A model generated the notes under the pieces. It had not been told where the DNA came from. It ran no database searches and worked only from the letters and a program-made list of their open reading frames with translations. The position numbers and the translations under genes were made by a program. Positions 12,018-48,964 of a stretch of 64,000 nt of DNA are shown here, one piece after another (position 1 is the first letter of the stretch; each line of letters opens with the position of its first letter). Source of the stretch: Candidatus Gottesmanbacteria bacterium (lineage in GTDB: Bacteria > Patescibacteriota > Microgenomatia > UBA10105 > UBA927); the NCBI GenBank assembly GCA_016214885.1, contig JACRMP010000025.1:44025-108024 (forward strand). Direction: 5' to 3'.

Positions 12018-12154
12018 TCTTTATTGCGGTCGACGGGGAATCAGTGTGATTTCTTCTCGAAACTATATAGCCCTTTAACAATCGAATGGTGATAGGAATT
12101 TTTATTGATGTAAGCAGATTTTTGGTCAAACAAAAGTCCTTATGTCAATTTTTT

Positions 12155-13906
<1,752 letters not shown>

Positions 13907-24845: not shown

Positions 24846-25457
24846 TTAAAACAGACCAATCTGTCTTGTGGAATCGATGACTTCTTTAGGATACGAAAAG
24901 TCGACGGTAAAACTCGCCACATTGTTCCAATTGTCGATGTACTTAAGTTCGCGGTTTGCTACACCAAAGTCATATAAATCGCGGGTGAGCAGTACGTCTG
25001 CCTCGCAATATTCCTGGAGCATCTTGAGGCTTTCGGGATCATGCTGGTTCCAGTACATTACCGCATTGGTGCCTACATCTGTTTTATCCCGTCCCAGTGT
25101 ATATTTTCCCAATGTTGAAAGACTCAGATAGTGTCCCAGTTTGGCGCGCACGTGTACCATGATGTCGAAATGCGGTAGTTTGGAAAAATTTTCAGGAGCA
25201 TACGGGAGTAACGCCGGCACGTCAAATTTTATCGTGTTAAATCCTATGATGCGCTTAGCTTCACCCATAATGCGGAACATTTCGGGGAAATCCTCTTCCC
25301 AGAAGCTTTTCAATTCTCCCGATATTTCATGCTGTTCATCATCCACCTGGCGGATATAGGCACTGGCAATGGATACACCCAGCAATGAGGGATCATTTCC
25401 TTCCACTTCTGAAAACAACCGTTTGGTTTCTACATCAAAAATGACTTCAGTAATCAT
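24846..25457 (-). CDS. DEDD-type 3'-5' exonuclease (RNase H-like, YprB/PF13482-like)
   Basis: Exo I VIFDVETKRLF, Exo II IGFNTIKFDVPAL, Exo III EYCEADVLLTRDLYDF. The ORF upstream of the Met at 25457 overlaps the divergent MFS gene. Confidence 0.55.
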   Translation of the reverse strand: MITEVIFDVETKRLFSEVEGNDPSLLGVSIASAYIRQVDDEQHEISGELKSFWEEDFPEMFRIMGEAKRIIGFNTIKFDVPALLPYAPENFSKLPHFDIMVHVRAKLGHYLSLSTLGKYTLGRDKTDVGTNAVMYWNQHDPESLKMLQEYCEADVLLTRDLYDFGVANRELKYIDNWNNVASFTVDFSYPKEVIDSTRQIGLF

Positions 25458-25592
25458 AGGGTGAAGTAAGTATAGGAAAAACGGTGGATAAGAGCAAGCT
25501 GGAGCAACCGGACAACATCGGTGGTGTATTGGAGGTAGGAAACCCTCGTTGCCGGGATCGGTGCTGTATTTGATACAATGAGTGATTGGAAT

Positions 25593-26765
25593 ATGAAAAA
25601 AACGTTGTGGATTATTGCACTTATCGCGGTGGTAAACGCCCTGGGATACGGGATTATCATTCCTATTCTTTATTCGTACTCGCACAAATTCGGGCTTTCT
25701 GATTTCCACAACGGATTGTTGTTTTCGATATTTTCCGTTTTCCAGTTTGTGGCAACTCCGCTTATCGGCAGGTTGTCCGACGCATATGGGAGAAGGCCGC
25801 TTCTTTTAATATCGCTGTTTGGAACCGCACTGTCGTTTTTTATCATGGCATTTGCACAGAATGCGGCGTGGCTGTTTATTGCCCGTGCGCTTGACGGACT
25901 CACTGCAGGCAATATTCCCGTAGCACTAGCCGTCATATCGGATACGACGGAACCAAAGGACCGCGCAAAAGGCTTCGGCATTATTGGGGCGTCCTTTGGT
26001 TTGGGTTTTACATTCGGACCTGCTATATCGGCATTCACGATCCACCTTGGGGCGGGAGTGCCGTTTATTATCGCGGGATTTGTCGCACTCGCGGCATTTC
26101 TGGTGACGGCGGTGTTTTTACAGGAGACCAATACGCACAAAGGGGTTGCCGTGACCCGGCACGTTTTTGATTTCCGGCATTTGTTCCATGCTCTTGTCGA
26201 TCCTGCGATAGGCAAAACGCTCACCGTATCATTTTTGGTCATGCTGGCGTTTTCCATATACATTTATGCGTTCCAGCCGATGTCGGTAGTTGTGCTCCAT
26301 CTGTCAGCACAGCAGATCTCGATTATTTTTACGGTCATCGGTATTATCGGATTGGTATCCCAGGGGGCGGTTATCCCCCGTGCACTTAAGTTGTTCGGAG
26401 AGCGGAGGCTTCTGGTAGGTTCTGCATTAAGTTCAGTTATTCTTTTTCTCGTGCTGTTTGCCGCACGTTCGTATCCGTTATTTTTAGCAGCCGTCATGCT
26501 CCAGGCATTTACCAATGGTTTTGCCAATCCGGTCATCCAGGCGTTGTTGTCGCGCGAAGCGGATCAGAAAAGTCAGGGATCCATTATGGGCGTAAACGCG
26601 TCGTATCAGAGCATCGGCCAGATTATAGGACCCATTATCGGAGGCGTCTTGTCGACCATATTTATTCCGCTGCCGTTTTTGGCGTCAGCGGCAGCGATGG
26701 GTGTTGCCGCCTTGCTTTCTGTGCAGATACTGCGTAAACACCTTCATCAGCAGGCCCTTGTATAG
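25593..26765 (+). CDS. MFS transporter (DHA1-like)
   Basis: 12 TM helices, motif A-like GRLSDAYGRRP, and LDGLTAGN. Confidence 0.75.
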   Translation: MKKTLWIIALIAVVNALGYGIIIPILYSYSHKFGLSDFHNGLLFSIFSVFQFVATPLIGRLSDAYGRRPLLLISLFGTALSFFIMAFAQNAAWLFIARALDGLTAGNIPVALAVISDTTEPKDRAKGFGIIGASFGLGFTFGPAISAFTIHLGAGVPFIIAGFVALAAFLVTAVFLQETNTHKGVAVTRHVFDFRHLFHALVDPAIGKTLTVSFLVMLAFSIYIYAFQPMSVVVLHLSAQQISIIFTVIGIIGLVSQGAVIPRALKLFGERRLLVGSALSSVILFLVLFAARSYPLFLAAVMLQAFTNGFANPVIQALLSREADQKSQGSIMGVNASYQSIGQIIGPIIGGVLSTIFIPLPFLASAAAMGVAALLSVQILRKHLHQQALV

Positions 26766-26824
26766 CTGACTTGTGCAAATATTTACATAAAGGCGTATAA
26801 TACCCCGCAATATCACTCCCGCGT

Positions 26825-27625
26825 ATGAACCCATTTGCAGAACGGAAACTTCAGCCTCAAAAAGAACTTCTCAATAGGAATAATCTTATTATCACCATTG
26901 ATGGCTCGACTACAGCGGGTAAGCGGGTATTGGGCGAGCATCTGGCTGACCGGTATGATCTTAACGTGTTAAATACCGGCACCTCCATCCGCGCCATGGC
27001 GCTCCTTGCCATCGAAAATAATCTGGTTAAAACAAATGATACCAATGTGACCACTATACCGGTGGATTTCGGGGATCGTATCGTCGAGCTGTATGACAAA
27101 ATGCCCGAGAAGCTCACCATTACCAAACCCCGTGAAGGTGAACGGACGGCGAGAGTTATGGTGGGAGCGCGTGACATGCGGGGTGAATTGCTTACTTATC
27201 AAAAACAAAAAGCCATCGAAAATCTCTCCGCTGTTATCGCTGCGAGCCCCGTTATCCGGTGGAAGCTCTACCAGCTATGGCGGTCAGCAGCAAAGGAGTT
27301 GGGAGGCGTAGTGGTGATCGGCCGGAAGACCGGTATTGATTTGTTCCCCAATGCACCGGTGAAGCTGTATTTCTTCGCAAGTCCGGAAGCGTCGGCTGCC
27401 TATCGGGTGACCCACGATCCGACAGCCACCATGCACCAGACGACAGAGGAATTGTATATCCGTGAGCGTGACGGGCAGGATCAAATAAATGGATTGCTTG
27501 ATAGACCTGCGGGGGCAATCGTGATCGATACGAGTCCGTATATAAGCCGCGGTGATGGTAAGGGTTTGGCGGAGCTGGAAGCGCAGATTGTTAAGCGTAT
27601 CGATAGCCGTTTCGAAATTAGATAA
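26825..27625 (+). CDS. Cytidylate-kinase-like protein, paralog 1, with a non-canonical P-loop
   Basis: ITIDGSTTAGKR aligns to Cmk IAIDGPxxxGKST. The Cmk core motif GGVVVIGRKTGIDLFPNAPVKLYFFASPEASAAYR is present (compare GRDIGTVVFPDA.KIFLTAS.E.RA.RR). Confidence 0.55.
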   Translation: MNPFAERKLQPQKELLNRNNLIITIDGSTTAGKRVLGEHLADRYDLNVLNTGTSIRAMALLAIENNLVKTNDTNVTTIPVDFGDRIVELYDKMPEKLTITKPREGERTARVMVGARDMRGELLTYQKQKAIENLSAVIAASPVIRWKLYQLWRSAAKELGGVVVIGRKTGIDLFPNAPVKLYFFASPEASAAYRVTHDPTATMHQTTEELYIRERDGQDQINGLLDRPAGAIVIDTSPYISRGDGKGLAELEAQIVKRIDSRFEIR

Positions 27626-28196
27626 GTTTTGCCCTGCTGTTTGACTGTACGACGGTGAGGGGGTGCTTGGTGCCTTTTTCCCAGAGTTTAAAGCCCACAT
27701 AGTTATACTGTGGCGTCTTGAGGTGTCCCTCCCGGTACATTTTTTCTACGTCATCGGGGGTGAAAAATCCGTAGTTTTGGATTTCATCAGCCTGCATCTT
27801 GAAAGTGCCGTCGAGAATAGTTCCGCGGTACGAATAACCGATGTGCATATGCGCCTTATCTACGCTGGTTCCGTTCTTGTCTTTGCCGTAGGCGACAGCA
27901 TCTTTGTCATCATCGGCGTAGTAGTGCCACACCCCGATAAGCTCATCGAGGCGGATGTCTAAACCAAGTTCCTCTTTGGCTTCCCGCAGCGCTGCCATTT
28001 CCGGTTCTTCGTTAAACGCCACATCTACAAATCCGGCTATCGGTGACCATTTGCCGCCGTATTGATCCACGTCCTGCACCATGAGGAGCCGGCCGTTTGC
28101 ATCGCTTAAGAATATGGATACCGATGCAGATGCGTTGGTGTGTTCTTTCCACACCGATTGTTCTTTGGGGACGGGCGATACTTCATGGTTTGCCAT
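27618..28196 (-). CDS. NUDIX hydrolase
   Basis: Nudix box GFVDVAFNEEPEMAALREAKEELGL. Confidence 0.8.
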   Translation of the reverse strand: MANHEVSPVPKEQSVWKEHTNASASVSIFLSDANGRLLMVQDVDQYGGKWSPIAGFVDVAFNEEPEMAALREAKEELGLDIRLDELIGVWHYYADDDKDAVAYGKDKNGTSVDKAHMHIGYSYRGTILDGTFKMQADEIQNYGFFTPDDVEKMYREGHLKTPQYNYVGFKLWEKGTKHPLTVVQSNSRAKLI

Positions 28197-28232
28197 AGTA
28201 AGAAGGGTATTATACTCTAAACTACGGCAATT

Positions 28233-28631
28233 TTAAAAATCAGCGCGGTCCATGTATAGAGCGGGGTTTTTGATGATATCCCGGTAGAGACCCGAATCCG
28301 CATAGTGGCCGGAGACGCTGCGGTTGGGTACGGTGTACAAATGGATTTCGCGCGTTTGTATCGTGGTGGTGACGGTGGCGCTCGCTTTATCGGCTACTTC
28401 TTCGGGTGGCGGCGCGGCTTCTTCAGGGGAATTCGGGGGGTCGGGTAGCGCTGTTGGCTCCCGCAGATTGTGTGCGTGCGGAGTATGTTCAGTCCATGAC
28501 ATACCAATGCCAATTATACACCGCCGTGTCCAGAGGTGATCGCTTGACAGGAACTTCGTTGTGTGTGCTAGAGTATATATAGATATGGCAAAAGCAGTGA
28601 AAAAGAAAAAGCCGATTAAGAAACCCCACAA
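28233..28631 (-). CDS. Hypothetical small membrane protein (uncertain)
   Basis: N-terminal TM helix. It overlaps the 5' end of the divergent 28585 gene, so the start is uncertain. Confidence 0.2.
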   Translation of the reverse strand: MWGFLIGFFFFTAFAISIYTLAHTTKFLSSDHLWTRRCIIGIGMSWTEHTPHAHNLREPTALPDPPNSPEEAAPPPEEVADKASATVTTTIQTREIHLYTVPNRSVSGHYADSGLYRDIIKNPALYMDRADF

Positions 28632-29613
28632 AGTGCGTGCGTTAGCCTCCTCCGCCTCAAAAGATTCCTGGAGTATTAAACGGATTTATCTTCCTTTAGG
28701 GTTTGCTGTTTTAGCACTGTTGGCTGGGTCACAGCTTACATATACCCAGAGTTACCGGAGTGACATTTTGGGTGATGAGGATGATGCAATTGAGGAGCAG
28801 CAAAAAGAAGCGGAAGATCAGCAAAAAGAGGAAGAGGAACGCAGAGAAGACGAAGCGAAGAGGTTGGAGGATGCACAAAAAGAGCAGGAACAGGAGCAGG
28901 AGCAAGAACAGGAGCGTTCACAAAATTCCGGCAGCAGCAGAACACGGGTAAAGACGGAAATGGAAACAGAAACCAAAAGCGGCGTAAAGATTAAGTCTAA
29001 GATAGAAGACAATGGAGCACGGAAAATAGAAGTGGAAGGAGAGGGCGTACACTTCAAGTTTGAGGAAGAGAATGGTGAAGTGAAACTTAAGGTGGAAAAT
29101 GAAGAAGGAGAAGAATCCGAGACGCGCTCCCACCTGAGTATCGTGGACGAGCTGGAGGATGCACTAGAGGATGAAGAGATAGAAATATCCAGTGACGAAG
29201 GACATCTGGAGCTTACACACAATGCCGTACGTGCACGGGTGAATTTCCCGCTGTCTATTGATCCGGTGACACGCGAGCTTATTGTGACAACGCCCGCAGG
29301 GGAAAAGACGGTGGCAATTCTGCCCGATGCCGCACTGAAAAATTTGTTTATTAAAGGGTTTCTGACTGAAATCGCCTCCGGTTCAGGATCGATTGCCGAT
29401 GCCAGCGGTTCCGCTAGTTTGGCGGGCGCATTTGAACTAAAGATTAACAACGGGAACTTGGTATACGAAATAAAAGGGAGTAAAAAAGAGAAGTTCCTGG
29501 GATTAGTGCCGGTGACCATGCCGAAGACAATGACGGTTTCCGCCCTTAGCGGCGAGGTATTATCCGAGACACAGTCTATTCTTTCTACCATCCTCGGATT
29601 CCTGTCATTCTAA
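28585..29613 (+). CDS. Membrane-anchored acidic protein with EQ/EE low-complexity repeats
   Basis: A TM anchor (LPLGFAVLALLAGS), then QKEQEQEQEQEQE..., many E-rich segments, and a GSGS linker. Confidence 0.5.
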   Translation: MAKAVKKKKPIKKPHKVRALASSASKDSWSIKRIYLPLGFAVLALLAGSQLTYTQSYRSDILGDEDDAIEEQQKEAEDQQKEEEERREDEAKRLEDAQKEQEQEQEQEQERSQNSGSSRTRVKTEMETETKSGVKIKSKIEDNGARKIEVEGEGVHFKFEEENGEVKLKVENEEGEESETRSHLSIVDELEDALEDEEIEISSDEGHLELTHNAVRARVNFPLSIDPVTRELIVTTPAGEKTVAILPDAALKNLFIKGFLTEIASGSGSIADASGSASLAGAFELKINNGNLVYEIKGSKKEKFLGLVPVTMPKTMTVSALSGEVLSETQSILSTILGFLSF

Positions 29614-29682
29614 CTATTTTCCTGTAGTACACCAGCAAACCCTCTGGATATTTGTTATTGCGTGTTATAATCTGCCGAAGTT

Positions 29683-30438
29683 ATGATCCGGAACACTGAG
29701 CAGATATCTATGGGAGCATCTGTCGCGGTAATCGGCCCTACTGCGTCTGGCAAAGAGAAGCTTTCGGTGAGTGAGCTTGCTCCCCGTTTGGGAGAGGTGG
29801 CGATTATCACCGGTAATTCGGTGCGTGCTGCAGCACTTAAGGCTCGGGAACAGAATTTGCTGACAGTGTGTGACGGGTCGGTGCGTTTTCAGCCACACGC
29901 GGCAGATATTATCCATGATTGGTTTAACCGGGGATCACGCGGTTTTCATTTCGAGCAGGTGGGGGATGGCGTTAAAGCACACATTTTTTTTGGCGACCGT
30001 GACTTGAACAAAGCAATTCACCCGCGCAACACCGGGGAAAATCTGGAGCCACTTGCGGCACATATAGCTACACATCCCCTGATCCGGAAGGCGATGTACA
30101 GATTTTGGCGGGATTCGATAGCGCGGTTTGGAGGAGCGGTAGTCGTGACCAAAACGCCCAAGGCGTATATGCCGGAAGCGCCGGTAGTAGCACTGACGGT
30201 AGATGATATCACCGCGACAGCGTACCGGTTCCGGCATGGTGTTAATGTGTTTCCTACTTTTGATGGGGAGTTAGCATATTTGAGACAGCGTAACGAATTG
30301 CACCGTAAGAAGCATCTTGACGGCGTTCCAAAAGGCTCCATGCTTCTTGATATGTCGCCGTTTCTTATGCACCGCGCGGGTATGGGTAAAGCCGCCGACC
30401 GGGTGCAGGAGTTTTTGGCGCAGCGAATGTTCCGGTGA
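29683..30438 (+). CDS. Cytidylate-kinase-like protein, paralog 2, with a non-canonical P-loop
   Basis: VAVIGPTASGKEK aligns to the Cmk P-loop but lacks the Ser/Thr after Lys. GGAVVVTKTPKAYMPEAPVVALTVDDITATAYRF matches the Cmk core, and it aligns to paralog 1 throughout. Confidence 0.55.
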   Translation: MIRNTEQISMGASVAVIGPTASGKEKLSVSELAPRLGEVAIITGNSVRAAALKAREQNLLTVCDGSVRFQPHAADIIHDWFNRGSRGFHFEQVGDGVKAHIFFGDRDLNKAIHPRNTGENLEPLAAHIATHPLIRKAMYRFWRDSIARFGGAVVVTKTPKAYMPEAPVVALTVDDITATAYRFRHGVNVFPTFDGELAYLRQRNELHRKKHLDGVPKGSMLLDMSPFLMHRAGMGKAADRVQEFLAQRMFR

Positions 30439-30831
30439 TTACGTGCGGGGGACAATCATGCGGGAGAGGCGGGTAATGCGGATATGTTCCATATCATGCG
30501 CTGCCATCGCATCTTTGGGAATACGTGCGATGGTCCGTGCATACGCATCGATGCGTACCGGAAATTTAGTCTGAAAAGTATAGGTTATCGTAAGATCTTT
30601 ATCTGGCCCGTCGGTTACTACTATTTCTACTGCAGACGCATCACCGGTGTAATTTTTGATCCGTGAATCCGGAAAACCCCGGACCCACCCGGTATTTGTA
30701 CGGGGACGCGTTCTGAAGCCGCCGCTTTCTTCCACTACTACCACATCCTGCAACATGAGACTCATTTCTTTGGCGGCACTCATGGGGCGATAGTAGGGGG
30801 TTTGGGTTGCCGGTGTCAATAACATGTGCAT
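30439..30831 (-). CDS. Hypothetical protein (start uncertain; possibly MSAAKEM at 30783)
   Basis: An ORF with native GC content; no recognisable motif. Confidence 0.3.
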   Translation of the reverse strand: MHMLLTPATQTPYYRPMSAAKEMSLMLQDVVVVEESGGFRTRPRTNTGWVRGFPDSRIKNYTGDASAVEIVVTDGPDKDLTITYTFQTKFPVRIDAYARTIARIPKDAMAAHDMEHIRITRLSRMIVPRT

Positions 30832-30884
30832 GGGTGAATCAGCTTGACTTCAGTACAAAAAGGAGTAATGTTACAGCAGTATTT

Positions 30885-32309
30885 ATGAAGCTAATCGATC
30901 AATTATCAAGCATACAGTCTCCGCGAGAATGGGAAGAATTATGCGATGCTTGTTTTTTGGCTGAATTTGGCTTAAATTACCAAACAGTAAAATCCAAAAA
31001 AGATAATGGGATGGATGGATACATCATTTCTGAAAAAAGATTGATTGCAAAACATTGTTTTGAGGAGAAGCCATCCATTCACGATAAAGATAAAGAAATT
31101 AAAAAAAAGATAATCCAAGACTTGGATAAAGCGATTAAGGTTAAATTGCGAAGAGAGGTTAGTCGTTGGACGTTCGTCACACCATATGAGCTTACTGAGG
31201 GGCAACTTAAGTTTCTTGAAGATGAGGCTAGAAAACGAGGTTTTATTGGGTCAAGTCTTTGTGCTAAGTCGATAGAAGTTATATTGCTGCACCACAAAGA
31301 AATAATATCTAAATTTCCTAATTTGGAAGTCGTTGATATAAAAAAAGATATTGGCGAAGTTCTTAATCGATTACCAAAGATAACTAAGATTGGAGAGCTT
31401 ACCCCGAAGGAGCAGGAAGCAGATGCACTAAGCCTTCAAGATAAACAAAATACATCAATAACCCACGAGAAAACGTCGGAAAAAGAAAGGGAAAGTTCAG
31501 AGGATTTAAAGAAAGCTCAGAAATTGTCTAGTGGAGAGCGTGACAAGGGCAATAAAGTCGCCCTTAGAGCCCTTCTATATTCATCAACGGACAAATTGGC
31601 TCAAATGCAATGCGCAATGGGGTTAATACAATGGTACGATGTACTGTCGGAGCGGCCTGAAGAGATGATAGGAATTTGCGATAGAGGTGTTCAATTATCT
31701 AAAGAGGCGAATAGACTTGATCTAGAAGCGATTTTTTTGGTTTCTCGTGCAGATTTTCTCTCAATGCAGTTTTGTGAGTTAGACATGAATGTGACTGCTC
31801 AGATAAAAATGGGGAATGCAGTGGGTATGCCGTTAATTAATGAGGCTGATAGGAAAAAGGCATTACAACAATTGGACGCACTTGATAAAGCATTCAAATT
31901 AGACTTCTCTAATGCGTTAGAGAAAGCTAGACAGTCTGGACAGGCTCATATTATTGCAACGGTTTTGATGAAAATTGGGTCTGCAGCAGGGAATAGATCA
32001 ATTCACTTAGCGGCCTACGGAATTCAAGATAGGGCGGATTTAGAAAAAAGAATTTGTCTTGATACACTTGCTACAGCAAAAAATATTTATGCGAATATTG
32101 GTGATGAAATAGCGGTTGCGTATGTATTGCATACAATAGCTAATAATCTTCGTTTTTTTGGTGAGAATGAGGAGGCAAAAATATTAATAGATCAAGTCAT
32201 TGAGACTTCTCAAAAACTTGGAGATAGTTATCTAAATGAAGGAGCAAAAATTCTGAAAGAGCGAATCATTACAGGGCGGATACCAGATTATGTTCATGGT
32301 GAACGTTAA
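30885..32309 (+). CDS. Low-GC single-gene island: an Mrr-like PD-(D/E)xK nuclease N-domain fused through a disordered linker to a ~300-aa helical-repeat domain
   Basis: N-terminus WEELCDACFLAEFGLNYQTVKSKKDNGMDGYIISEKRLIAKHCFEEK resembles the Mrr catalytic domain (FExL...GY...DGGIDG...hhh.K). A charged linker follows, then amphipathic helical repeats. GC is ~35% against ~50-58% in the flanks. Confidence 0.55.
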   Translation: MKLIDQLSSIQSPREWEELCDACFLAEFGLNYQTVKSKKDNGMDGYIISEKRLIAKHCFEEKPSIHDKDKEIKKKIIQDLDKAIKVKLRREVSRWTFVTPYELTEGQLKFLEDEARKRGFIGSSLCAKSIEVILLHHKEIISKFPNLEVVDIKKDIGEVLNRLPKITKIGELTPKEQEADALSLQDKQNTSITHEKTSEKERESSEDLKKAQKLSSGERDKGNKVALRALLYSSTDKLAQMQCAMGLIQWYDVLSERPEEMIGICDRGVQLSKEANRLDLEAIFLVSRADFLSMQFCELDMNVTAQIKMGNAVGMPLINEADRKKALQQLDALDKAFKLDFSNALEKARQSGQAHIIATVLMKIGSAAGNRSIHLAAYGIQDRADLEKRICLDTLATAKNIYANIGDEIAVAYVLHTIANNLRFFGENEEAKILIDQVIETSQKLGDSYLNEGAKILKERIITGRIPDYVHGER

Positions 32310-32373: not shown

Positions 32374-32943
32374 ATGATTTTGTCAGACCGCGATATTACT
32401 GCATCCCTCAAATCCGGGCGTATCAAAATTGCCCCTCCGATAGACAAAAAAACCCAGCTCGGATCCTGTTCCATCGATCTTAGGCTCGGCAAACAATTCC
32501 GTGTATTTAATCACAGCAAGATAGCCTACATCGATACCAATAACCCCAGGCTCACGGCAGGCATGATGGGCGAAGTGAAGCTTAAGGATAATGAACCCTT
32601 CATCCTCCAGCCGGGGGATTTTGTGCTCGCTACCACCATGGAAACGGTTACGCTTCCGGATGATCTGGTGGGCAGATTAGAAGGGCGTTCCAGTCTGGGA
32701 CGGCTGGGGATTGTGGTACATTCTACCGCTTCCATTTTTGACCCCGGCTGGTCGGGGATGATTGTTATGGAATTGGGGAATATGGGGCGCATGCCGGTAG
32801 CTCTTTACCCCGGCATGAGGATTTGCAGCATGACGTTTGAGGAATTAAGCTCCCCGGCGCAGGTGCCGTATACCAAGAAAAAAACCGCAAAATATATCGG
32901 GCAAAAAGCCCCGCTCGCCAGTAAAATCGGTGATGATAAGTAA
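32374..32943 (+). CDS. dcd: dCTP deaminase
   Basis: MILSDRDI N-terminus, GRSSLGRLGI, and DPGWSGMIVMEL (the dUTPase-fold motifs of Dcd). Confidence 0.85.
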   Translation: MILSDRDITASLKSGRIKIAPPIDKKTQLGSCSIDLRLGKQFRVFNHSKIAYIDTNNPRLTAGMMGEVKLKDNEPFILQPGDFVLATTMETVTLPDDLVGRLEGRSSLGRLGIVVHSTASIFDPGWSGMIVMELGNMGRMPVALYPGMRICSMTFEELSSPAQVPYTKKKTAKYIGQKAPLASKIGDDK

Positions 32944-32973: not shown

Positions 32974-34506
32974 ATGAACGACTGGCCTATTTTGTATAAG
33001 CAGGTGCTGCATGTCAAAGACCCCAAAAATCCGGTAGGAGTTTCTATCATGTGGACGGAGCGGCAAGTGGTCGCCGACATGCTCAAGACCGAAAACTACT
33101 GCGCCATCGGGAACCTCTATTCATCTGCCGGTATATCGGCGATGATCCGGAATGTCTACGCCAACCCGCATATCAGAAAGATTGTCTTGTGGGGAGCTGA
33201 TCTTTCCCGTAGCGGTACGGCGCTCATGGCACTCATGGCAAATGGGGTGGACGAGAACTTTTTTATCAAGGGCGACGAAAAAGGCGGCCAGATAGAAAAG
33301 GAAATAGGACACGAAGCCATAGAGCTCTTCAGGAAATCGGTGGAGGTAATTAACCTTCGGGGCAAATCACCTGACGAACTCCGCCGGGTGGTTTCGGAAC
33401 TCAGTAAAGAACCTCCCAAGCCATTTACCGAACCCAAAACATTCCCGACGAGCAGGCCGAAGCCCTTTACGTATCCTTCGGAGCAGATTGGGTTTAGGAT
33501 TCACGGGCAAACAACGGCACAGACCTGGCTTAAAATCCTCCAGAATATTATGCGCTACGGGCGGAACAAAACGACCCGCTATACGCAGGAAAACGAACTT
33601 AAGGAACTGCTAAATGTAATGGCCGTTGTGTACAACGAAGATCCGGAGAAACCGTACCTTCCGTCATTTTTTCCGTTTTCAGAAAAAGATCTGGCTACCT
33701 ATTATCCGCAGGTATTATCAGCTAAACAGATTCCCGGTATCGCATACACCTATGGTCAGCGTCTCCGCGATCATGACGGGGTAGACCAGATTCAGAACAT
33801 TATTGACCTCATTAAGACCCGTCCGTTTTCCAAAAAAATGGTGGCGTTTACCGCAAAGATAAAAGAAGACTGGTCGGTGGTGAACAAAGGTGATACCCCG
33901 TGTTTAACCCAGATCCTCTGCAGTATCCAGGACGGCAAATTGTTTATGACTACCCATTTCCGTAGCCAGGACATGGTGCATGGCTGGCCGCGGAATGTAT
34001 TCAGTCTCAGGAAACTCCAGAAGCTTATTTGCGATGAATCAGGGGTTCCCATGGGGTCGTTTGTTATGATCACCCACAGCGCGCATATTTACAGCGACGA
34101 TTATGAGCTGGTCGAAAAAATCCTCAAAGAAAATTATGAAAAGGAGTTAGGATACACCAGCCGCCAGATGTTCGAGGATGACCCGCGCGGCAATGTAACG
34201 GTGGAAATAGAGGAGGTCGGTAAAAAGCCGGTAGGCAGACCGACCAAATATGCCGAGAAGCCGACGGATAAGGAATACGAAATCGTTGTCAAAATATACG
34301 CGCCCAACGGAGGGCTGCTGCTTAAGGAATGGCGGGGCAAGACGGCTATGGAAATATATATCGATATGGTAAATATCGGTGAGTATTTGGTGCTCCCAAG
34401 CCATGCCATTTATATAGGTACCGAAATGCAGCGGGCGGAGTTTTATATTAAGCTGGGTATGCCGGAAAAATATAACCAGGATCCGGCGGCAAACAAAGCG
34501 TTATAA
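32974..34506 (+). CDS. Thymidylate-synthase-family enzyme (ThyA fold) with a ~170-aa N-terminal and a ~130-aa C-terminal extension
   Basis: The core, ~aa 175-375, has YTYGQRL, DQIQNIIDLIKTRPFSKKMVAFTAK, DTPCLTQILCSIQDGKLFMTTHFRSQDMVHGWPRNVFSL and ITHSAHIYSDD. These correspond to the ThyA catalytic Cys (PCH), the RSxD and LGxP-like blocks, and HIY. Confidence 0.7.
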   Translation: MNDWPILYKQVLHVKDPKNPVGVSIMWTERQVVADMLKTENYCAIGNLYSSAGISAMIRNVYANPHIRKIVLWGADLSRSGTALMALMANGVDENFFIKGDEKGGQIEKEIGHEAIELFRKSVEVINLRGKSPDELRRVVSELSKEPPKPFTEPKTFPTSRPKPFTYPSEQIGFRIHGQTTAQTWLKILQNIMRYGRNKTTRYTQENELKELLNVMAVVYNEDPEKPYLPSFFPFSEKDLATYYPQVLSAKQIPGIAYTYGQRLRDHDGVDQIQNIIDLIKTRPFSKKMVAFTAKIKEDWSVVNKGDTPCLTQILCSIQDGKLFMTTHFRSQDMVHGWPRNVFSLRKLQKLICDESGVPMGSFVMITHSAHIYSDDYELVEKILKENYEKELGYTSRQMFEDDPRGNVTVEIEEVGKKPVGRPTKYAEKPTDKEYEIVVKIYAPNGGLLLKEWRGKTAMEIYIDMVNIGEYLVLPSHAIYIGTEMQRAEFYIKLGMPEKYNQDPAANKAL

Positions 34507-38033: not shown

Positions 38034-39842
38034 TTACTTGACCGTGACACTTTTAGCCAGGTTTCTGGGCATATCCGGATCAAAGCCCCGTTCCAGGGTG
38101 AGGTAGTAAGCCAACAATTGACCCACAACCACATTGGGGATGATTGATGCCTCTCCGATATCGGGAACCGGGATATACTCATCAAATACATCTTCTTTTG
38201 TCGGCGCCACTCCGATGATGTGGGCACCCCTCGCTTTCATTTCCATTGCATTGGCGATTGCCGACGCATGGTGCTGGTCATTGGGCGCATACACGATGCA
38301 GGTGGCACTTTTGGTAATAAGTGCCAAAGGTCCGTGTTTGAGCTCGCCTGCGGACACTCCCTCCGCGTGGATGTAGGAAATTTCCTTTATTTTGAGCGCG
38401 CACTCCATGACGGTGACATATGATATGCCCCTGCCGACGACAAACAGATGCTCGGCGTTTTTTAGTGATCCCGCTACATCCTTAATCAGCTTGACGTTTT
38501 TTTCCGTCAAAACCGCACGGGTGGCTTTTGCCGCTTGGGCGACTAATTTTTGTCCCGTCTTCGTGTCATTATTCATGGCATATGCCATGAGGATAAGTTG
38601 AGCGACTGTTGCCGTAAATGCTTTCGTCGACGCCACCCCTTTTTCGGGACCGGCGCCTATTGGCAGCGACAAATCCGACATGCGCCACAACGACGAGTTG
38701 ACGACGTTAACGAGCGACAGCACTCGCGTGCCGTGCTCTTTTGCCCGTTTAACAACATCCAGAAGATCCATCGTTTCGCCCGATTGCGACATCACAAGCA
38801 TCACCGCATTTTTCGGCAAAATGTCTATATGATGATGCATTTCCGTAGGACTGCTCCAGTTAGTTATTTTCTGTCCCACCGTGGCAAAATAATATGATCC
38901 CGCCCGTGCCGCATACCCGCTGGTACCGCTGCCCACCAGGTAAATGCGCGAGGCTTTTTGCAATTCGCGCGCCAATGCTGAAGCCTGCTGGGTCGAATCT
39001 GCAGCTATTTCTGAAAGCATACCCGGCTGCTCATGGATTTCCTTGAGCATAAAGTACGGGAATTTCCCTTTTTCCGTCTCCTCAGCAGTCCAGGTGAGTA
39101 GCTGTTTTTTGGGCCTTATACGTTCGCCGGAATGTGCATTGAAAATATGGATATTCTGCCGGGTGACTACGACCATTTCATCATCCTCCAGGAAATGCAC
39201 CTGCTTGGTGTAGGGAAGTAGCGCTACCGGATCACTGGCGAGAAAATTTTCTCCGGTGCCGAACCCTACCACCAGGGGGGAGCCGTTTCTTGCCGCCACC
39301 ATTTCATCTGCCATGGTATTTATGACAATGATGGCATTTAAACCGTCCAGATCCTTAAATGTAGCCTGTACTGCTTTGGAAAAAGCAGGTGCTGCATCCC
39401 GGGGGAGCACCGAGAATTTTTTAAGATATTCCTCGACAAGGTGCGCGATTACCTCTGTGTCTGTTTCCGACACGAAGACGTGACCCTTTTTCTTGAGTTC
39501 GTTTCTTAGCGTCTCATGGTTTTCCACAATGCCGTTGTGGATCACGGCAATCATTTTGGTGCAGTCAAGATGCGGATGGGCATTTTTGTCCGTAACGCCG
39601 CCGTGGGTGGCCCATCGTGTGTGACCGAACGCTAGTGAGCCGGGCGGGAGATCGCTTACTGTAGCGGCACCGATTTTGCCTGCCTTCTTTTTTACAAATA
39701 TAACTTTTTTTTCATCCGCCGAATCAGGTACCACAGCAACCCCCCAACTATCGTAACCCCGGTATTCCAGCGTTTTTAAACCGGTGAGTACCATACTGGG
39801 GGCAGTTTTTTTATCCCCGATATATCCGAAAATGCCACACAT
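38034..39842 (-). CDS. glmS: Glutamine--fructose-6-phosphate aminotransferase
   Basis: MCGIFGYIG Ntn glutaminase N-terminus, two SIS domains, and C-terminal ...KSVTVK. An AAGGAGGG RBS lies 8 nt upstream. Confidence 0.95.
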   Translation of the reverse strand: MCGIFGYIGDKKTAPSMVLTGLKTLEYRGYDSWGVAVVPDSADEKKVIFVKKKAGKIGAATVSDLPPGSLAFGHTRWATHGGVTDKNAHPHLDCTKMIAVIHNGIVENHETLRNELKKKGHVFVSETDTEVIAHLVEEYLKKFSVLPRDAAPAFSKAVQATFKDLDGLNAIIVINTMADEMVAARNGSPLVVGFGTGENFLASDPVALLPYTKQVHFLEDDEMVVVTRQNIHIFNAHSGERIRPKKQLLTWTAEETEKGKFPYFMLKEIHEQPGMLSEIAADSTQQASALARELQKASRIYLVGSGTSGYAARAGSYYFATVGQKITNWSSPTEMHHHIDILPKNAVMLVMSQSGETMDLLDVVKRAKEHGTRVLSLVNVVNSSLWRMSDLSLPIGAGPEKGVASTKAFTATVAQLILMAYAMNNDTKTGQKLVAQAAKATRAVLTEKNVKLIKDVAGSLKNAEHLFVVGRGISYVTVMECALKIKEISYIHAEGVSAGELKHGPLALITKSATCIVYAPNDQHHASAIANAMEMKARGAHIIGVAPTKEDVFDEYIPVPDIGEASIIPNVVVGQLLAYYLTLERGFDPDMPRNLAKSVTVK

Positions 39843-39889: not shown

Positions 39890-40120
39890 ATATTTTATGA
39901 AGATATAGAGAAGAGATACGGACTCCGTTGTTTGTCGTTCTATGCCCCGCCTTACGGAGAGGTTTCTCGCAAACATTGCGGTGGGGAGTGCCACCGAGGG
40001 GTTTCCGCAGATACTCCCCGCCAATCAATTGATACTTCAATCGAAGGCGAGGGTCCGATTTCTCCGCCAGCTGGCGGAGACCCCTTCCTCGTATCCCCGC
40101 AGTCGGCGGGGCCACACGCT
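39890..40120 (-). ncRNA. Candidate glmS ribozyme/riboswitch in the glmS 5' leader
   Basis: The minus-strand RNA contains AGCGUG..CCCCGC-CGACU-GCGGGG..GAUACGAGGAAGGGG..CGGCGG..CCCCUC..CUCCGUAAGGCGGGG. These resemble the glmS core elements (AGCGCC, GACGAGG, GGAGG/CCUCC pairing, CGGCGG, CCGUAAGG). Long insertions relative to the Bacillus type make the call tentative. Confidence 0.4.
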
Positions 40121-40281
40121 TACCATCTTTCCAGTTGCCGTACTCTGTAAATGTGCCTTTCTGTATCCCTATGCTACCCCCGGGTTATGTAGTTGTCAAA
40201 TTCCAGAGAGGCACAGCGAAGGGCTATATTTCTTAGTGTCTTGTCCTATAGATTTTTATGTGGTAGAAACACAGATAAGCA

Positions 40282-40926
40282 ATGAAAGAGCGCAACGAAT
40301 ACATCGCCGTAATGGGTACGATGGGCAGCGGAAAAACTACTGCCGCCAATCTGCTGGCCAAGGAACTCCGGTTCACCCTCGTTGAAGAAAACGTCAAAGA
40401 AAACGCATTTTTACCCCGGTTTTATAAGGATATGAGCCGTTGGGCGTTTCATTCCCAGGTATTTTTCCTGATGGAAAAAATCCGCCAGATGACCGAAACC
40501 AAAAACATCCTGGGAAAATCATCCGTCATTCAGGATACGCCCATTACCCAGGATGTGTATTCATATGCCAAAGCGCAGCATGAACTGGGGCACATGGATG
40601 ATGCCGAGTGGGCGCTGTACCAGAAAATTTATCATGAGTTTACTCCTCATTTTCCCCAGCCCGATCTTATTGTGTTTCTCGATACATCAATTCCCGCTAT
40701 AGAATCCCGTATTGCTGCACGGGGGAGGGAGTTTGAACAGGAGATCCCTACCGATTACCTTACCCTGCTTGATAAGCTAAACCGCAAATGGCTCGAGCAG
40801 AATACCACGATTCCGGTGGTGAGGATCGCCACGGATACGCTCGATATCACAAGGAGCCGCGATGCGCAGGAGCAATTTGCTTCAATGGTGAGGAGCGCGC
40901 TCACCAAGCGTGTTAGTGTACACTAA
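40282..40926 (+). CDS. Deoxynucleoside kinase (dCK/dGK family)
   Basis: P-loop VMGTMGSGKTT, an ERS-like region, and size and family pattern (FLPRFY, FHSQVFFL). Confidence 0.75.
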   Translation: MKERNEYIAVMGTMGSGKTTAANLLAKELRFTLVEENVKENAFLPRFYKDMSRWAFHSQVFFLMEKIRQMTETKNILGKSSVIQDTPITQDVYSYAKAQHELGHMDDAEWALYQKIYHEFTPHFPQPDLIVFLDTSIPAIESRIAARGREFEQEIPTDYLTLLDKLNRKWLEQNTTIPVVRIATDTLDITRSRDAQEQFASMVRSALTKRVSVH

Positions 40927-40934
40927 CTAGTACT

Positions 40935-41585
40935 ATGCAGAAAATTTCCGGGGTATCAGTATGTATATGGGATTTTGACGGCACACTCTACCGGCCGACA
41001 CCTGCACTCACCCAAGCGATCATCGAGGCGGATTACGAGCTAATAATGCGCCACACAGGATGGGATAAGGCAAAGACGGTCGAAGAATTTCATAAAATAT
41101 ATAAGGTGAAAACCCCCAGCAGTACCGAGACAGCGGCGGAACTTGCCGGTATTTCGGTACAGGAAGCGGCGATTGAGTGTGAGTTATATAAAGACCGCCG
41201 GCCGTTTCTGTCCCGGGATCAGCGGCTTATCGATATGTTTGCAAAGCTTACCCACTACACGCATTATTTTTTGGTGAACGGCATACAGGAAAAGGTGAGG
41301 GAGTCGCTTGATGTCTTGGGAGTGTCGCCGGATATATTCCGGGAGTTTGTAACTGCGGAAGTGGTGGGGGTGAATAAGCCCCAGCCGGACGGATTCCGCT
41401 ATATAATGGAAAAGACCGGGTTTCCGGCAGATGCCCACCTTATGATAGGAGACAGAGTGGCAGTCGATCTTGTTCCCGCCAAAGCCCTGGGGATGAAAAC
41501 GTGTCTTGTCTGGAGTGAGGTTACAGACTCGATTGCCGACGTAGTGTTGCCCGAAGTGTACGGTGTTGTAAGTGTGCTAGGATAA
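40935..41585 (+). CDS. HAD-family hydrolase (nucleotidase-like)
   Basis: Motif I VCIWDFDGTLY and motif IV MIGDRVAVDL. Confidence 0.6.
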   Translation: MQKISGVSVCIWDFDGTLYRPTPALTQAIIEADYELIMRHTGWDKAKTVEEFHKIYKVKTPSSTETAAELAGISVQEAAIECELYKDRRPFLSRDQRLIDMFAKLTHYTHYFLVNGIQEKVRESLDVLGVSPDIFREFVTAEVVGVNKPQPDGFRYIMEKTGFPADAHLMIGDRVAVDLVPAKALGMKTCLVWSEVTDSIADVVLPEVYGVVSVLG

Positions 41586-41589
41586 CAAT

Positions 41590-42699
41590 ATGCGGATTTT
41601 CTTTACAGCGGCTACCACTAATAACGGGGATTTCCTCACCCAGGAAAAAGCTATTGTTGCGGTGATCAAAAAATTGGGTCACACCCTCACCTCGGGAGAA
41701 CAGATACTTGATCATAAAAAACTGGCAAACGATGCGGCACATACACCGGAGGAAATTTTTTATCGGGAAAAACAGGCGATGGAAGATGCAGACTGCGTGA
41801 TAGCAGAAGTGACCAAGCCGAGCAGCGGGGTGGGAGGCGAGTTGGTGTATGCGCTTACCCATCACAAACCGGTGCTTGCTCTTTTTTACAAAGACGCTCC
41901 CAACGAATTATCTACCATGATTTCGGGCAACCCGTCGGATCATTTGTATCTGGAGCACTATGACGAAGACAGTTTACCTATCCTCATTAAGCATTTTCTG
42001 GAACAGGTGGAAGTCGAAAAAAACCGTCGGGGCAAACTTATCGTGATCGATGGCGGTGATGGTTCGGGCAAAACCACCCAGTCGGCATTGCTTACCCAAT
42101 ATCTGGAGCGTCAGGGGGTCGGCGTTAAGTCCTTCGACTTTCCCCGTTACTACAGTTCATTTCATGGCAAGATGGCCGGCAGGTTTTTGGCAGGCGAGTT
42201 TGGCGCGAATGTTTCCCCGTATCTGGCGTCATTGGCGTACGCATTAGACAGGGCAAGCGCGAAAGAAGAAATGGATTTATGGTTGTCTCACGGCGGAGTT
42301 ATCGTGTGCAACCGCTATGCGACCAGCAATATGGCACATCAGGGGGCAAGGCTCCCCAAAGAATCGCGGAAAGAGTTTTTGGAATGGATCGATGAACTGG
42401 AATACAAAGTGCATAAAATTCCGCGGGAGGATATTGTCATTTACCTCCATGTGCCATGGCGGGTGGGTATGGAATTAACCAAAAAGAAAGGCGACCGTGC
42501 GTATTTGGGCAGCAACAAAGATATTCTGGAAGCAAACGAACACCACCGCGAAGAATCAGAGGCTATGTACCTCTCGCTTGCCAAGTCGCGCCGCAACTGG
42601 GTGACGGTCGAGTGCGTTGAAGACAGTGCAATACTTCCCATGGAAACTATCCTCGAGCGGGTGTTGGCGGCGCGCCGGGCTAAAAAGCTAATCACATGA
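41590..42699 (+). CDS. tmk: Fusion protein: an N-terminal nucleoside 2-deoxyribosyltransferase/DNPH1-like domain plus C-terminal thymidylate kinase
   Basis: N-terminus MRIFFTAATT...VTKPSSGVGGELVYAL (NDT-family catalytic Glu context). C-terminus LIVIDGGDGSGKTTQ...RY (Tmk P-loop and DRY-like region). Confidence 0.75.
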   Translation: MRIFFTAATTNNGDFLTQEKAIVAVIKKLGHTLTSGEQILDHKKLANDAAHTPEEIFYREKQAMEDADCVIAEVTKPSSGVGGELVYALTHHKPVLALFYKDAPNELSTMISGNPSDHLYLEHYDEDSLPILIKHFLEQVEVEKNRRGKLIVIDGGDGSGKTTQSALLTQYLERQGVGVKSFDFPRYYSSFHGKMAGRFLAGEFGANVSPYLASLAYALDRASAKEEMDLWLSHGGVIVCNRYATSNMAHQGARLPKESRKEFLEWIDELEYKVHKIPREDIVIYLHVPWRVGMELTKKKGDRAYLGSNKDILEANEHHREESEAMYLSLAKSRRNWVTVECVEDSAILPMETILERVLAARRAKKLIT

Positions 42700-43298
42700 T
42701 AACCACAGTTTTTTTGGTGCGTCACGGGCATTATGACAGTCCCGCGCCGGTAGCTCCTTATAGGCTCCCCGGATTCCATCTATCCCCAAAGGGCAGAGAA
42801 GACGCCGCGTCCCTATCCCGGAGCTTAGCGGGGGAGGACATCAGCGCTGTTTTTACCAGTCCCTTGGAGCGGACAGCGGAAACCGCGGGGATTATTGCCG
42901 GAGCCCATGGGATTGTCCCCGTTGTCGATCCGCGGCTGCTTGAGGTGCGATCTCCGCTCCAGGGTAAAACCCCAGAAGAAATACACACCCTCGGCGGCTG
43001 GAATTGGTCCATTTATGACACCCCGTGGTATGCCGAAAAGGGCGGAGAAACGCCAACCATGATTTTAGCCCGGATGAAGGAGTGTATCGAAGAGCACCGG
43101 AATACCTACAGGGGAGGGAGTATTTGCCTGGTTTCTCATGGGGACCCCATCATGCTTGCCGCAGCCTATTATGGGGGTTCACCCATTGATACCGAACACC
43201 TTTTGACCATGGAGCCGTATGTGCCTATGGCAGGCGGATACCGTATCGTATTTGAGGCGGACAAGGCTCCGGGCGTGTATCCTATAGTTGTCGCTTGA
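42696..43298 (+). CDS. Histidine phosphatase family protein (phosphoglycerate-mutase-like)
   Basis: The RHG motif in VFLVRHGHYDS, and ...GDPIMLAAAYY. Confidence 0.65.
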   Translation: MITTVFLVRHGHYDSPAPVAPYRLPGFHLSPKGREDAASLSRSLAGEDISAVFTSPLERTAETAGIIAGAHGIVPVVDPRLLEVRSPLQGKTPEEIHTLGGWNWSIYDTPWYAEKGGETPTMILARMKECIEEHRNTYRGGSICLVSHGDPIMLAAAYYGGSPIDTEHLLTMEPYVPMAGGYRIVFEADKAPGVYPIVVA

Positions 43299-43346
43299 CA
43301 AGAGGATTCCATCATGATATAAATAATAAAAGCGCTCAAAGCTTTT

Positions 43347-44276: not shown

Positions 44277-44770
44277 GCACCCTCAAGGAGTATATAAACC
44301 GGGCAAATAACGCCAAAAACGCTTACGAATCGTTTAAAGGAATCCCGACTGATCAAGTTGCGTATAACGAATTTTTCGTGCCTCCCGTGTGTAATAAGAC
44401 GGAAGGACGGCTGAGTGAAGTATTTACGAGAGCGACACGGCGCGGAGCATTTTTATATGACGAAGCGGCATTATTTCCCCTAGCGGAAATAGGCGTCCGG
44501 TCTGTGTTTGGGTTAGACCGTTGGGTACCGAAAGCCCCGAAGCGAGTTGTGGCGGATGTGGTCATTAAAAACCCGTGGGATGCTACCGATGCGTCATGGC
44601 TTGAGCGCTACGGGGTGCGGAATGCACTCGTTGTTTATAGCAAAGCGAATATAACTCATTTGTTTGTCGGGGGAGTTATGAGGAAAAATATATATGTGAT
44701 CAGACCCGTTATGGACTGGTCGCTGCAGGAAAAAATTATGCATGCGCTGCATAAGCACATAGAGCATTAA
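44273..44770 (+). CDS. Hypothetical protein
   Basis: An ORF with good coding periodicity in an operon context; no motif recognised. Confidence 0.35.
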   Translation: MSTLKEYINRANNAKNAYESFKGIPTDQVAYNEFFVPPVCNKTEGRLSEVFTRATRRGAFLYDEAALFPLAEIGVRSVFGLDRWVPKAPKRVVADVVIKNPWDATDASWLERYGVRNALVVYSKANITHLFVGGVMRKNIYVIRPVMDWSLQEKIMHALHKHIEH

Positions 44771-44785
44771 TGATATAATTCCGCT

Positions 44786-47817: not shown

Positions 47818-47840
47818 TTCAGGAGAGAACAGGAGTATCT

Positions 47841-48299: not shown

Positions 48300-48393
48300 G
48301 CAGTCTCTAAAGGAAAGTCGTACTGCTCTCTTTCAGAATAATTAAGACAAGACACTATTGACTGGTTTGTTCCTGTCACCTAAACTAATACCA

Positions 48394-48957: not shown

Positions 48958-48964
48958 TCTATCA

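Follow-up and report, generated by a model that had tools for sequence, protein, structure and literature searches.

A lineage-specific pair of remodelled cytidylate kinase paralogs in a conserved gene cluster of Patescibacteria

Contig JACRMP010000025.1 of Candidatus Gottesmanbacteria bacterium carries, within the 64-kb stretch analysed here (the window, to which coordinates refer unless another locus is named), two genes for divergent relatives of the bacterial cytidine monophosphate (CMP) kinase Cmk: p1 (26825..27625, + strand, 266 aa), a divergent and conserved member of a family that we call F1, and p2 (29683..30438, + strand, 251 aa), a fast-evolving accessory paralog that belongs to a second family, F2. 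Judged from their sequences, the two are best described as a lineage-specific pair of variant Cmk subfamilies; they represent a known enzyme family in remodelled form and not a new system. The core of the cluster in which they lie, composed of F1, a Nudix hydrolase gene, dcd and a thymidylate synthase (ThyA) fusion gene, is that of one Patescibacteria clade. We favour, with modest confidence, the view that this is a housekeeping pyrimidine (deoxy)nucleotide cluster in which F1 is a remodelled Cmk and F2 a specialised accessory kinase.

In this cluster, p1 is probably the clade's ortholog of bacterial Cmk and an active nucleoside monophosphate (NMP) kinase, and we consider it fairly likely that p1 serves as the housekeeping (d)CMP kinase of the clade with a rebuilt active site. 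A preliminary description of the window, made from its letters alone, had set the pair apart from housekeeping cmk. For p1 this view does not hold: it is the best candidate for the housekeeping enzyme because it has a fixed place in all loci of the clade, is under constraint similar to that on dcd, passes the Pfam threshold and keeps most of the catalytic residues. No canonical cmk was found in the window, in agreement with the same description, when all six-frame open reading frames (ORFs) were scanned with a hidden Markov model (HMM) of canonical Cmk; this model detects p1 (E 8e-25), p2 (8e-5) and, as a weak third match, the P-loop of a deoxynucleoside kinase at 40282-40926.

Family, fold and active site of the two proteins

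The two proteins align with each other along their full length, as first described (BLASTP, 29% identity across 228 residues, E 2e-23), and are almost certainly paralogs. On the Pfam model Cytidylate_kin (PF02224; gathering threshold, GA, 26), p1 scores 84.8 bits, and its alignment with E. coli Cmk (1CKE, E 1.9e-13) covers the full length. p2 stays under every curated threshold, with 17.7 bits on PF02224 and 14.1 bits on the NCBIfam equivalog model TIGR00017, and since the Pfam threshold is missed, its family assignment comes from the match to p1 and from the predicted fold. The related family Cytidylate_kin2 (PF13189, gathering score 28 bits), which the preliminary description had named as the alternative to Cytidylate_kin, fits neither protein: p1 reaches 17.3 bits over residues 22-73 only and p2 gives no match. 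Of the two Pfam families, p1 thus passes the threshold of Cytidylate_kin only, and p2 lies below both.

The AlphaFold2 models have a predicted local distance difference test (pLDDT) score of 89 and a predicted template modelling (pTM) score of 0.86 for p1, and of 80 and 0.81 for p2. In Foldseek searches against the PDB, the best 21 matches of p1 and the best 18 matches of p2 are all Cmk, with target-normalised TM scores of up to 0.85 and 0.81, respectively (0.65-0.85 across the top Cmk matches of both). Because these best matches are exclusively bacterial CMP kinases, it is nearly certain from the models that p1 and p2 share the long-form Cmk fold, including the insert in the NMP-binding domain. 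3FDI, which we take to be a putative Cytidylate_kin2 member, comes only at rank 27 in the p1 list. Cytidylate_kin2 proteins, which are uncharacterised and Cmk-like, do have a related P-loop kinase fold and give the weak N-terminal match of p1, but p1 and p2 fall under their gathering score and have true Cmk as best structural matches.

Residue assignments were read from sequence alignments and follow the numbering of E. coli Cmk; the sequence used agrees with the PDB alignment (1CKE) over residues 7-205. In the Yersinia and E. coli enzymes, Arg41 and Arg131 are phosphate ligands, Arg110, Asp132 and Ser36 form hydrogen bonds with cytosine, Tyr40 stacks on the base, and Asp185 and Arg188 contact cytidine diphosphate (CDP); the mutants R110A, R131A and R188A are inactive (PMC3603445). 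In E. coli Cmk the pentose is contacted by Asp185 and the cytosine amino group by Asp132.

The P-loops read GSTTAGKRV in p1 and GPTASGKEK in p2, confirming the first reading (GSTTAGKR and GPTASGKEK). Both retain Gly12, Gly17 and Lys18; at position 15, Gly has given way to Thr in p1 and to Ala in p2, the residue after the lysine (Lys+1) is Arg and Glu, and the Thr at Lys+2 has become Val and Lys, respectively. Neither protein matches the canonical pattern GxxGxGK[S/G]T. The loss of the P-loop hydroxyl that had been pointed out is real; the canonical Thr, however, sits at Lys+2 (GKGT in E. coli) and not directly after the lysine, where it had been placed. Beyond the P-loop, p1 retains Thr36, Arg41, Arg110, Arg131, Arg158, Arg181 and Asp185 in addition to Lys18, has Ile for Tyr40 and Lys for Asp132, and is without Arg188 owing to a 2-residue deletion. 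p2 retains Lys18, Thr36, Gly37, Arg41, Arg110, Arg158 and Arg181; it carries Val for Tyr40, Lys for Arg131, Thr for Asp132 and His for Asp185, and has no in-register equivalent of Arg188. The LID segment is ASPEASAAYR in p1 (SAAYR in place of RAxRR) and VDDITATAYR in p2, and Arg158, the last of the three LID arginines, is the sole one retained in both. The full CMP-site set (Ser36, Tyr40, Arg41, Arg110, Arg131, Asp132, Asp185, Arg188) is incomplete in p1 and in p2. As for the LID and NMP-site arginines, whose retention the preliminary description had wished to see examined, the alignments show that Arg41, Arg110, Arg158 and Arg181 are kept and that two LID arginines and Arg188 are lost. The Cmk core block which it had attributed to both proteins is complete in p1 only: in p2, G.VV, P.AP and the closing YR remain, whereas GR has become TK and ASPE has become VDDI.

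The same changes mark the two families as a whole. The canonical P-loop DGPxGxGK[S/G]T reads DGSTTAGKR[V/I/L/M] in crown F1, ends in GKW or GK[E/Q] in basal F1, and takes the form xGxxxxGKE in F2 (13 of 15 members). At positions 36-41, the canonical [S/T]GxxYR is NTGxx[I/V]R in F1 and TGxxxR in F2; p1, p2 and most other members of both families have an aliphatic residue in place of Tyr40. Arg110 is common to canonical Cmk, F1 and F2. The GRD of positions 130-132 is GR[K/R] in F1 and [T/A/G]K followed by T, R or N in F2, where Asp never occurs at 132; among aligned F1 members, position 132 is Lys or Arg in all but the outlier P0085 (Asn). The LID motif RAxRR is SAxYR in both families, and the RDxxDxxR of positions 181-188 is RDxxD in F1, followed by the 2-residue deletion that removes Arg188, and R[D/N]xxH in F2 (His185 in 14 of 15).

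Read from these alignments, the F1 active site has been rebuilt, with loss of the P-loop Thr, two LID arginines, Asp132 and Arg188. In crown F1, the basic residues at Lys+1 (Arg) and at 132 (Lys) may compensate for the missing LID arginines and Arg188. Type I and type II thymidylate kinases, which differ in whether the catalytic Arg lies in the P-loop or in the LID, offer a precedent for such a shift of charge between the two elements, as in crown F1 the loss of two LID arginines is accompanied by a new Arg directly after the P-loop lysine. They belong to another NMP-kinase family, however, and have their Arg at a different P-loop position; moreover, the analogy is limited to crown F1, because basal F1 and F2 have Glu or Gln at Lys+1.

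In F2, the columns kept in at least 14 of 15 diverse members are Gly12, Gly17, Lys18, Thr36, Gly37, Arg41, Arg110, Arg158, Arg181 and His185, and the features specific to the family are the GKE P-loop, Lys131 in place of Arg and His185 in place of Asp. The best-conserved columns of F2 are nucleotide-binding positions, which argues that selection preserves a nucleotide-binding site. With these columns kept and Asp132 and Asp185 replaced, p2 would be a specialised accessory kinase rather than a dead copy. It has probably retained phosphate transfer, with a sugar or base specificity unlike that of F1, as the replacement of residues 132 and 185 suggests; that p2 is catalytically active at all we put at somewhat short of an even chance.

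Several points weigh against the favoured view of the pair, in addition to the limits of the tree and of the substitution rates given with them below. On TIGR00017, p1 scores 75 bits, under the 135.55 cutoff. Its CMP specificity, and even catalysis, are uncertain, as it is without Tyr40, Asp132, the P-loop Thr, two LID arginines and Arg188, a residue whose change to Ala inactivates the Yersinia enzyme. In p2, Asp185 is replaced as well, and so is Arg131, where a change to Ala abolishes activity. Finally, three homologs found in the position of F2 are degenerate: P0088 reads GGTGSGQLD, with Gln for the P-loop Lys, P0090 reads GSRSSGGME, and in P0091/L016a the TG motif and Arg41 are gone. Since all three have lost the P-loop Lys or more, kinase chemistry is not universally required of F2.

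These degenerate homologs bring in a different reading of p2, which we consider rather unlikely but the most serious of the alternatives: F2 would be a non-catalytic nucleotide-binding regulator, i.e. a pseudokinase, which senses a pyrimidine nucleotide and modulates Dcd, the ThyA fusion or F1. Consistent with this, F2 is without Asp11, the P-loop Thr, Arg131 (Lys instead), Asp132, Asp185, Arg188 and two of the three LID arginines, and its gene is an accessory one, which in locus L012 lies directly upstream of dcd on the same strand. Yet 14-15 of 15 intact F2 members retain the P-loop Gly/Gly/Lys, Arg41, Arg110, Arg158 and Arg181, residue 131 is basic, and these are the positions needed for handling ATP and the NMP phosphate. 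The degenerate copies, for their part, occupy the longest branches, and decay alone may account for them, and most of the losses are common to F1, a strongly constrained core gene. The preliminary description had extended the pseudokinase idea to both proteins. This is not borne out: in p1 and p2, the P-loop Lys is retained along with the arginines that bind NMP and ATP, these being the best-conserved columns of F2, and the hallmark of a pseudokinase, loss of the P-loop Lys or of phosphate-binding arginines, appears only in P0088, P0090 and P0091.

Descent, distribution and constraint

A word-indexed search with p1 returned 68 clusters at 50-94% identity, with a wide gap in E-value between the last F1 member (3e-70) and the first canonical Cmk (6e-9). 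The F1 homologs are labelled 'Patescibacteria group bacterium', and some of the records name the protein '(d)CMP kinase'. With p2, the same type of search returned four clusters only, whose records give neither a source name nor a Pfam domain. An exhaustive HMMER search with a profile of the p2 family retrieved 18 proteins at E<=1e-3 among 1.84e9 representatives, all from the F1/F2 clade, and no canonical Cmk among them. We found nothing specific in the literature searched on cmk and pyrH in Patescibacteria, the candidate phyla radiation (CPR) and Saccharibacteria, and no paper describing F1 or F2.

In a neighbour-joining tree (200 bootstraps) that includes six canonical outgroups only, a limit on its reach, the split between canonical Cmk and F1+F2 is supported at 100%, the F2 core at 99.5%, the F2 core with the intermediate sequences P0085 and P0088 at 92.5%, and F1 at 64%. 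Neither protein nests inside canonical Cmk in this tree; together with the absence of canonical Cmk from the F2 profile matches, it places the pair outside canonical Cmk, as the preliminary description had supposed. Because the F2 core is monophyletic within the clade, the tree points to a single old duplication inside the F1/F2 lineage, predating the diversification of the clade, as the origin of F2. Repeated independent duplications of F1 were rejected in view of this monophyly (99.5% bootstrap) and of the shared derived residues. Two further loci from a metagenome scan, L033 and L034, proved to be canonical Cmk genes from unrelated organisms (GC 41% and 62%) and are uninformative here.

We then compared gene content across 36 related loci, whose ORFs were classified by family HMMs. 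The recurring order is an RNaseH-like gene (- strand), a major facilitator superfamily (MFS) gene, F1, Nudix (- strand), a variable spacer, dcd and the ThyA fusion, some loci being without the MFS gene. Every related locus of sufficient length shows the succession from F1 and Nudix to dcd and the ThyA fusion, which upholds the suggested tie of the pair to pyrimidine deoxynucleotide genes. F1 is present at its fixed position in all loci of the clade, and Nudix directly follows it in every related locus that reaches beyond the F1 3' end. The spacer is empty in L026, which displays the minimal form F1/Nudix/dcd/ThyA, and in L014 consists of an 86-aa ORF only.

F2 occupies the spacer in the window and in L001, L005, L006, L010, L011, L012, L016 (two copies), L023, L024 and L030, and is absent from L008, L009, L014/15, L021, L022 and L026/27, i.e. 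it is present in roughly 60% of the surveyed loci and is dispensable. L016 (5959-9031 of that locus) holds three Cmk-like genes, F1 and two copies in the F2 position (P0088 and a heavily degenerate, P0091-like one), and L006 has a second F2-position copy, P0090 (13959-14738 of that locus). From their sequences, these copies of L006 and L016 look like pseudokinase or decaying versions of F2. One of the loci, L010 (CAYUZE010000013.1), comes from a record titled 'uncultured Gammaproteobacteria bacterium', but the contig is syntenic with the Patescibacteria loci and its proteins are 77-94% identical to theirs, except for fast-evolving small ORFs, a glyoxalase-like gene and F2; it is probably mis-binned.

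The ratio of non-synonymous to synonymous substitution rates (dN/dS, Nei-Gojobori method) is 0.02-0.05 for F1, 0.03-0.065 for dcd, 0.007-0.03 for the ThyA fusion and 0.10-0.11 for F2 in two independent pairs (window-L001 and L010-L011), values that are approximate because dS, at 0.8-1.7, is near saturation. Between loci, identity is typically 60-70% for pairs of F1 proteins, against 26-42% for pairs of F2. By these estimates, F2 evolves two to three times faster than F1 and is still under purifying selection. They bear on whether p2 might be a redundant duplicate drifting to loss, without a function distinct from that of p1. Such a fate, which we judge very unlikely, would suit the patchy presence of F2, the 26-42% identity between lineages, the degenerate copies in L006 and L016 and the position in a variable spacer that also collects insertions. 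However, intact ORFs are found in at least 11 loci, dN/dS is about 0.1 in both independent pairs, Lys131, His185 and the GKE P-loop are kept across deeply diverged F2, and the duplication predates the diversification of the clade.

The trees of F1 and F2 are incongruent: F1 of L011 is 84% identical to p1 and its F2 only 40% identical to p2. L010 and L011 both resemble the window closely in F1 (84-85%) and Nudix (87-88%), and only at 38-40% in F2. L005 is a mosaic with respect to window positions 24846-30438, with identities of 95% (RNaseH-like), 79% (MFS), 68% (F1), 60% (Nudix) and 70-71% (F2). Together with the two copies of L016, these patterns suggest that the history of the spacer involved either differential loss of old F2 sub-paralogs or recombination.

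The gene cluster and its proposed pathway

The Nudix hydrolase gene (27618..28196, - strand, 192 aa; PF00293, 61.9 bits; without a specific NCBIfam equivalog) lies between the two kinase genes as described, divergent from p2 and from the gene of the acidic membrane protein; with p1, in contrast, it is convergent, and the two overlap by 8 nt (27618-27625). This overlap of the F1 and Nudix 3' ends is kept in the window and in L001, L005, L008, L009, L010 and L011. On the 5' side of Nudix and on the same strand is a small conserved ORF (28233..28502, about 89 aa from the ATG at 28502), without match in Pfam, PADLOC or PHROG; homologs at 39-66% identity occur in L001, L005 and L008-L011, with further matches in the wider locus set. 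The acidic membrane protein (28561..29613, + strand, 350 aa) was found as described, with an N-terminal hydrophobic, transmembrane (TM) segment and a long Glu/Asp-rich stretch, and has chance-level Pfam matches only. It is present in the window and in L005, L008, L009, L011, L019, L022 and L023, is reduced to a 66-aa remnant in L001, and is absent from L010, L012 and L024. A functional unit of this protein with p2 was considered and rejected, as each is found without the other; the acidic protein is a variable occupant of the spacer and not an obligate partner of F2.

Downstream of p2 and convergent with it is a conserved 114-aa ORF (30439..30783, - strand) with a weak, sub-threshold AtaL match; it is 61-77% identical in L001, L010 and L011 and 37% in L006, and occurs with or without F2. 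Next comes the low-GC nuclease gene, Mrr_cat-like (30807..32309, + strand, 500 aa; PF04471, 21.1 bits, GA 21), with a GC content of 0.385 against a background of about 0.48. It has no homolog in the seven related loci that were compared gene by gene, and in L001 the 114-aa ORF is directly followed by dcd. We therefore regard it as a strain-specific insertion, probably a recent horizontal one. The downstream anchor of the conserved cluster is dcd, for dCTP deaminase (32374..32943, + strand, 189 aa; TIGR02274, 209.3 bits, cutoff 92.8), followed by the ThyA fusion gene (32974..34506, + strand, 510 aa), which joins MtrA-like, thymidylate synthase and pterin-binding (DUF4346) domains (PF04208, PF00303, PF14251). 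On the archaeal-type model TIGR03283, the fusion protein scores 144.7 bits, under the 174.55 cutoff; a thymidylate synthase that uses an unusual carrier of one-carbon units is a possibility. Compared over its full length with its counterparts in related loci, dcd is 83-97% identical; the ThyA fusion, at 88-99%, is the most conserved gene of the cluster. dcd, the ThyA-like gene and the low-GC nuclease gene are thus neighbours of the pair as had been reported. In the region 26.5-33 kb, promoter-like sites occur at the level expected from shuffled sequence and the excess of terminator-like sites is modest; no transcription units were defined.

The adjacency of the kinases, Nudix, the acidic membrane protein and the low-GC nuclease gene to one another and to dcd and the ThyA-like gene could also be taken for a nucleotide or DNA modification system, or an anti-phage system, the more so as the spacer is variable and carries Peptidase_U49/M78-like and helix-turn-helix (HTH) genes in other loci. 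We hold this to be very improbable. None of the seven related loci compared has the nuclease gene, which removes the functional link to it that the preliminary description had raised; the acidic protein is optional; and in L014 and L026, F1 and Nudix are found without the other parts. dcd and the ThyA fusion are highly conserved core genes rather than island genes. In PADLOC-DB v2, p1, p2, the acidic protein, the 114-aa ORF and the Mrr-like gene have no match and the Nudix protein has a chance-level match only (E 0.003), and neither p1 nor p2 matches PHROG, which likewise speaks against the modification role once proposed for them. For all genes of the interval, the scans with the two databases lend no support to an origin in defence or in phages. 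The DcdV proteins, defensive dCTP deaminases with an N-terminal kinase-like domain, resemble the cluster in that a P-loop kinase-like protein is associated with a cytosine-nucleotide deaminase. Here, however, dcd is a separate 189-aa gene of housekeeping type, without fusion and without PADLOC match, and it is always present while F2 is often absent.

In the pathway that we propose for the housekeeping cluster, salvaged (d)CMP would be phosphorylated to (d)CDP by F1, a nucleoside diphosphate (NDP) kinase step would lead onward to dCTP, and Dcd would deaminate the latter; dUMP would come from the Nudix enzyme or from Dcd itself, and the ThyA fusion would make dTMP. Such a route from (d)CMP to dTMP fits with a second salvage cluster of the window, which includes a deoxynucleoside kinase, a haloacid dehalogenase (HAD) hydrolase, a nucleoside 2-deoxyribosyltransferase-like/thymidylate kinase fusion and serine hydroxymethyltransferase (SHMT). 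That cluster spans 40282-46096 and also encodes a histidine phosphatase and a Maf-like protein; the fusion gene lies at 41590-42699. Similar clusters occur in L012, L035 and L036.

A further reading of p1, unlikely in our estimate, makes it a UMP/CMP (or dUMP/dTMP-accepting) kinase that replaces PyrH, with p2 covering part of the pyrimidine NMP spectrum. In Cmk, the 4-amino group of cytosine donates a hydrogen bond to Asp132; F1 has Lys or Arg at this position, and Arg188 is deleted. A donor at 132 would suit the 4-oxo group of uracil or thymine. In addition, tsf and frr, which usually flank pyrH, have no such gene between them in the window (46903-48957) or in two relatives, and no AA_kinase domain was found in the window ORFs scanned. 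Nevertheless, pyrH may lie elsewhere, as the window represents 64 kb of a genome of roughly 1 Mb, F1 retains the cytosine ligands Arg110 and Thr36, and the adjacency to dcd fits a dCMP substrate equally well. Eukaryotic and archaeal-type UMP/CMP kinases could be functional analogs if F1 or F2 accepts UMP and CMP; unlike F1 and F2, they are short-form enzymes without the Cmk insert and match weakly in structure (5UKD, TM 0.43-0.55). Carried to the whole clade, the idea would be that Cmk-derived enzymes replace the division of labour between PyrH (UMP) and Cmk (CMP), F1 taking both UMP/dUMP- and CMP-type substrates and F2 being another sugar or base specialist; we give this, too, a small chance only. 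Candidate F2 substrates would then be deoxy versus ribo forms, or a modified pyrimidine scavenged from the host. Such a replacement would agree with the lack of pyrH in the tsf-frr operon of the window and of two relatives, although this is far from proof.

The operon itself, rpsB, tsf (short, 152 aa), frr and an M50 peptidase gene, occupies window positions 46903-50050, with 58 nt between tsf and frr. A pyrH-less rpsB/tsf/frr operon is also seen in L035 (4567-7739 of that locus) and L036 (4690-7675), with ribosome recycling factors that are 69-73% identical. Elsewhere in the window, a group I intron (12608-12854) splits the 16S rRNA gene (12150-13904), a 23S rRNA gene was not detected in this stretch, and a glmS ribozyme (39919-40131, - strand) lies upstream of glmS (38034-39842, - strand).

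Relation to Cmk and significance

Compared with characterised Cmk (EC 2.7.4.25; 1CKE/2CMK, and 4E22 from Yersinia), p1 and p2 have the same long-form NMP-kinase fold and a collinear full-length alignment, and keep the P-loop Gly/Gly/Lys, the (S/T)G motif, Arg41, Arg110 and Arg181, p1 having Arg131 and Asp185 as well. They differ from it by a P-loop of the form GK[R/W/E/Q]x instead of GK[S/G]T, by the LID motif SAxYR instead of RAxRR, and by extra insertions, carried by both F1 and F2, at the N terminus and in the NMP domain.

To our knowledge, Patescibacteria are unable to make nucleotides de novo and live on salvaged ones. A 2026 preprint on one cultivated member of the group stresses the importance of Cmk as a key, highly expressed enzyme, ranks its gene with the most expression-optimised ones and proposes a role in the interconversion of RNA-derived nucleotides; this gives the F1/F2 variant some physiological relevance. 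The pair also calls for caution in automated annotation, given that p1 is named '(d)CMP kinase' in some records and p2 and its relatives stand without source name or Pfam domain in the records retrieved here. The practical impact would be modest unless the substrate specificities prove new. For the biology of the clade, F2 is a compact case of neofunctionalisation versus decay in a reduced genome. The only recognisable Cmk of the clade, within the 64-kb window, has lost residues that are essential in model enzymes, yet is very strongly constrained, which makes p1 a natural experiment in rebuilding the active site of an NMP kinase.

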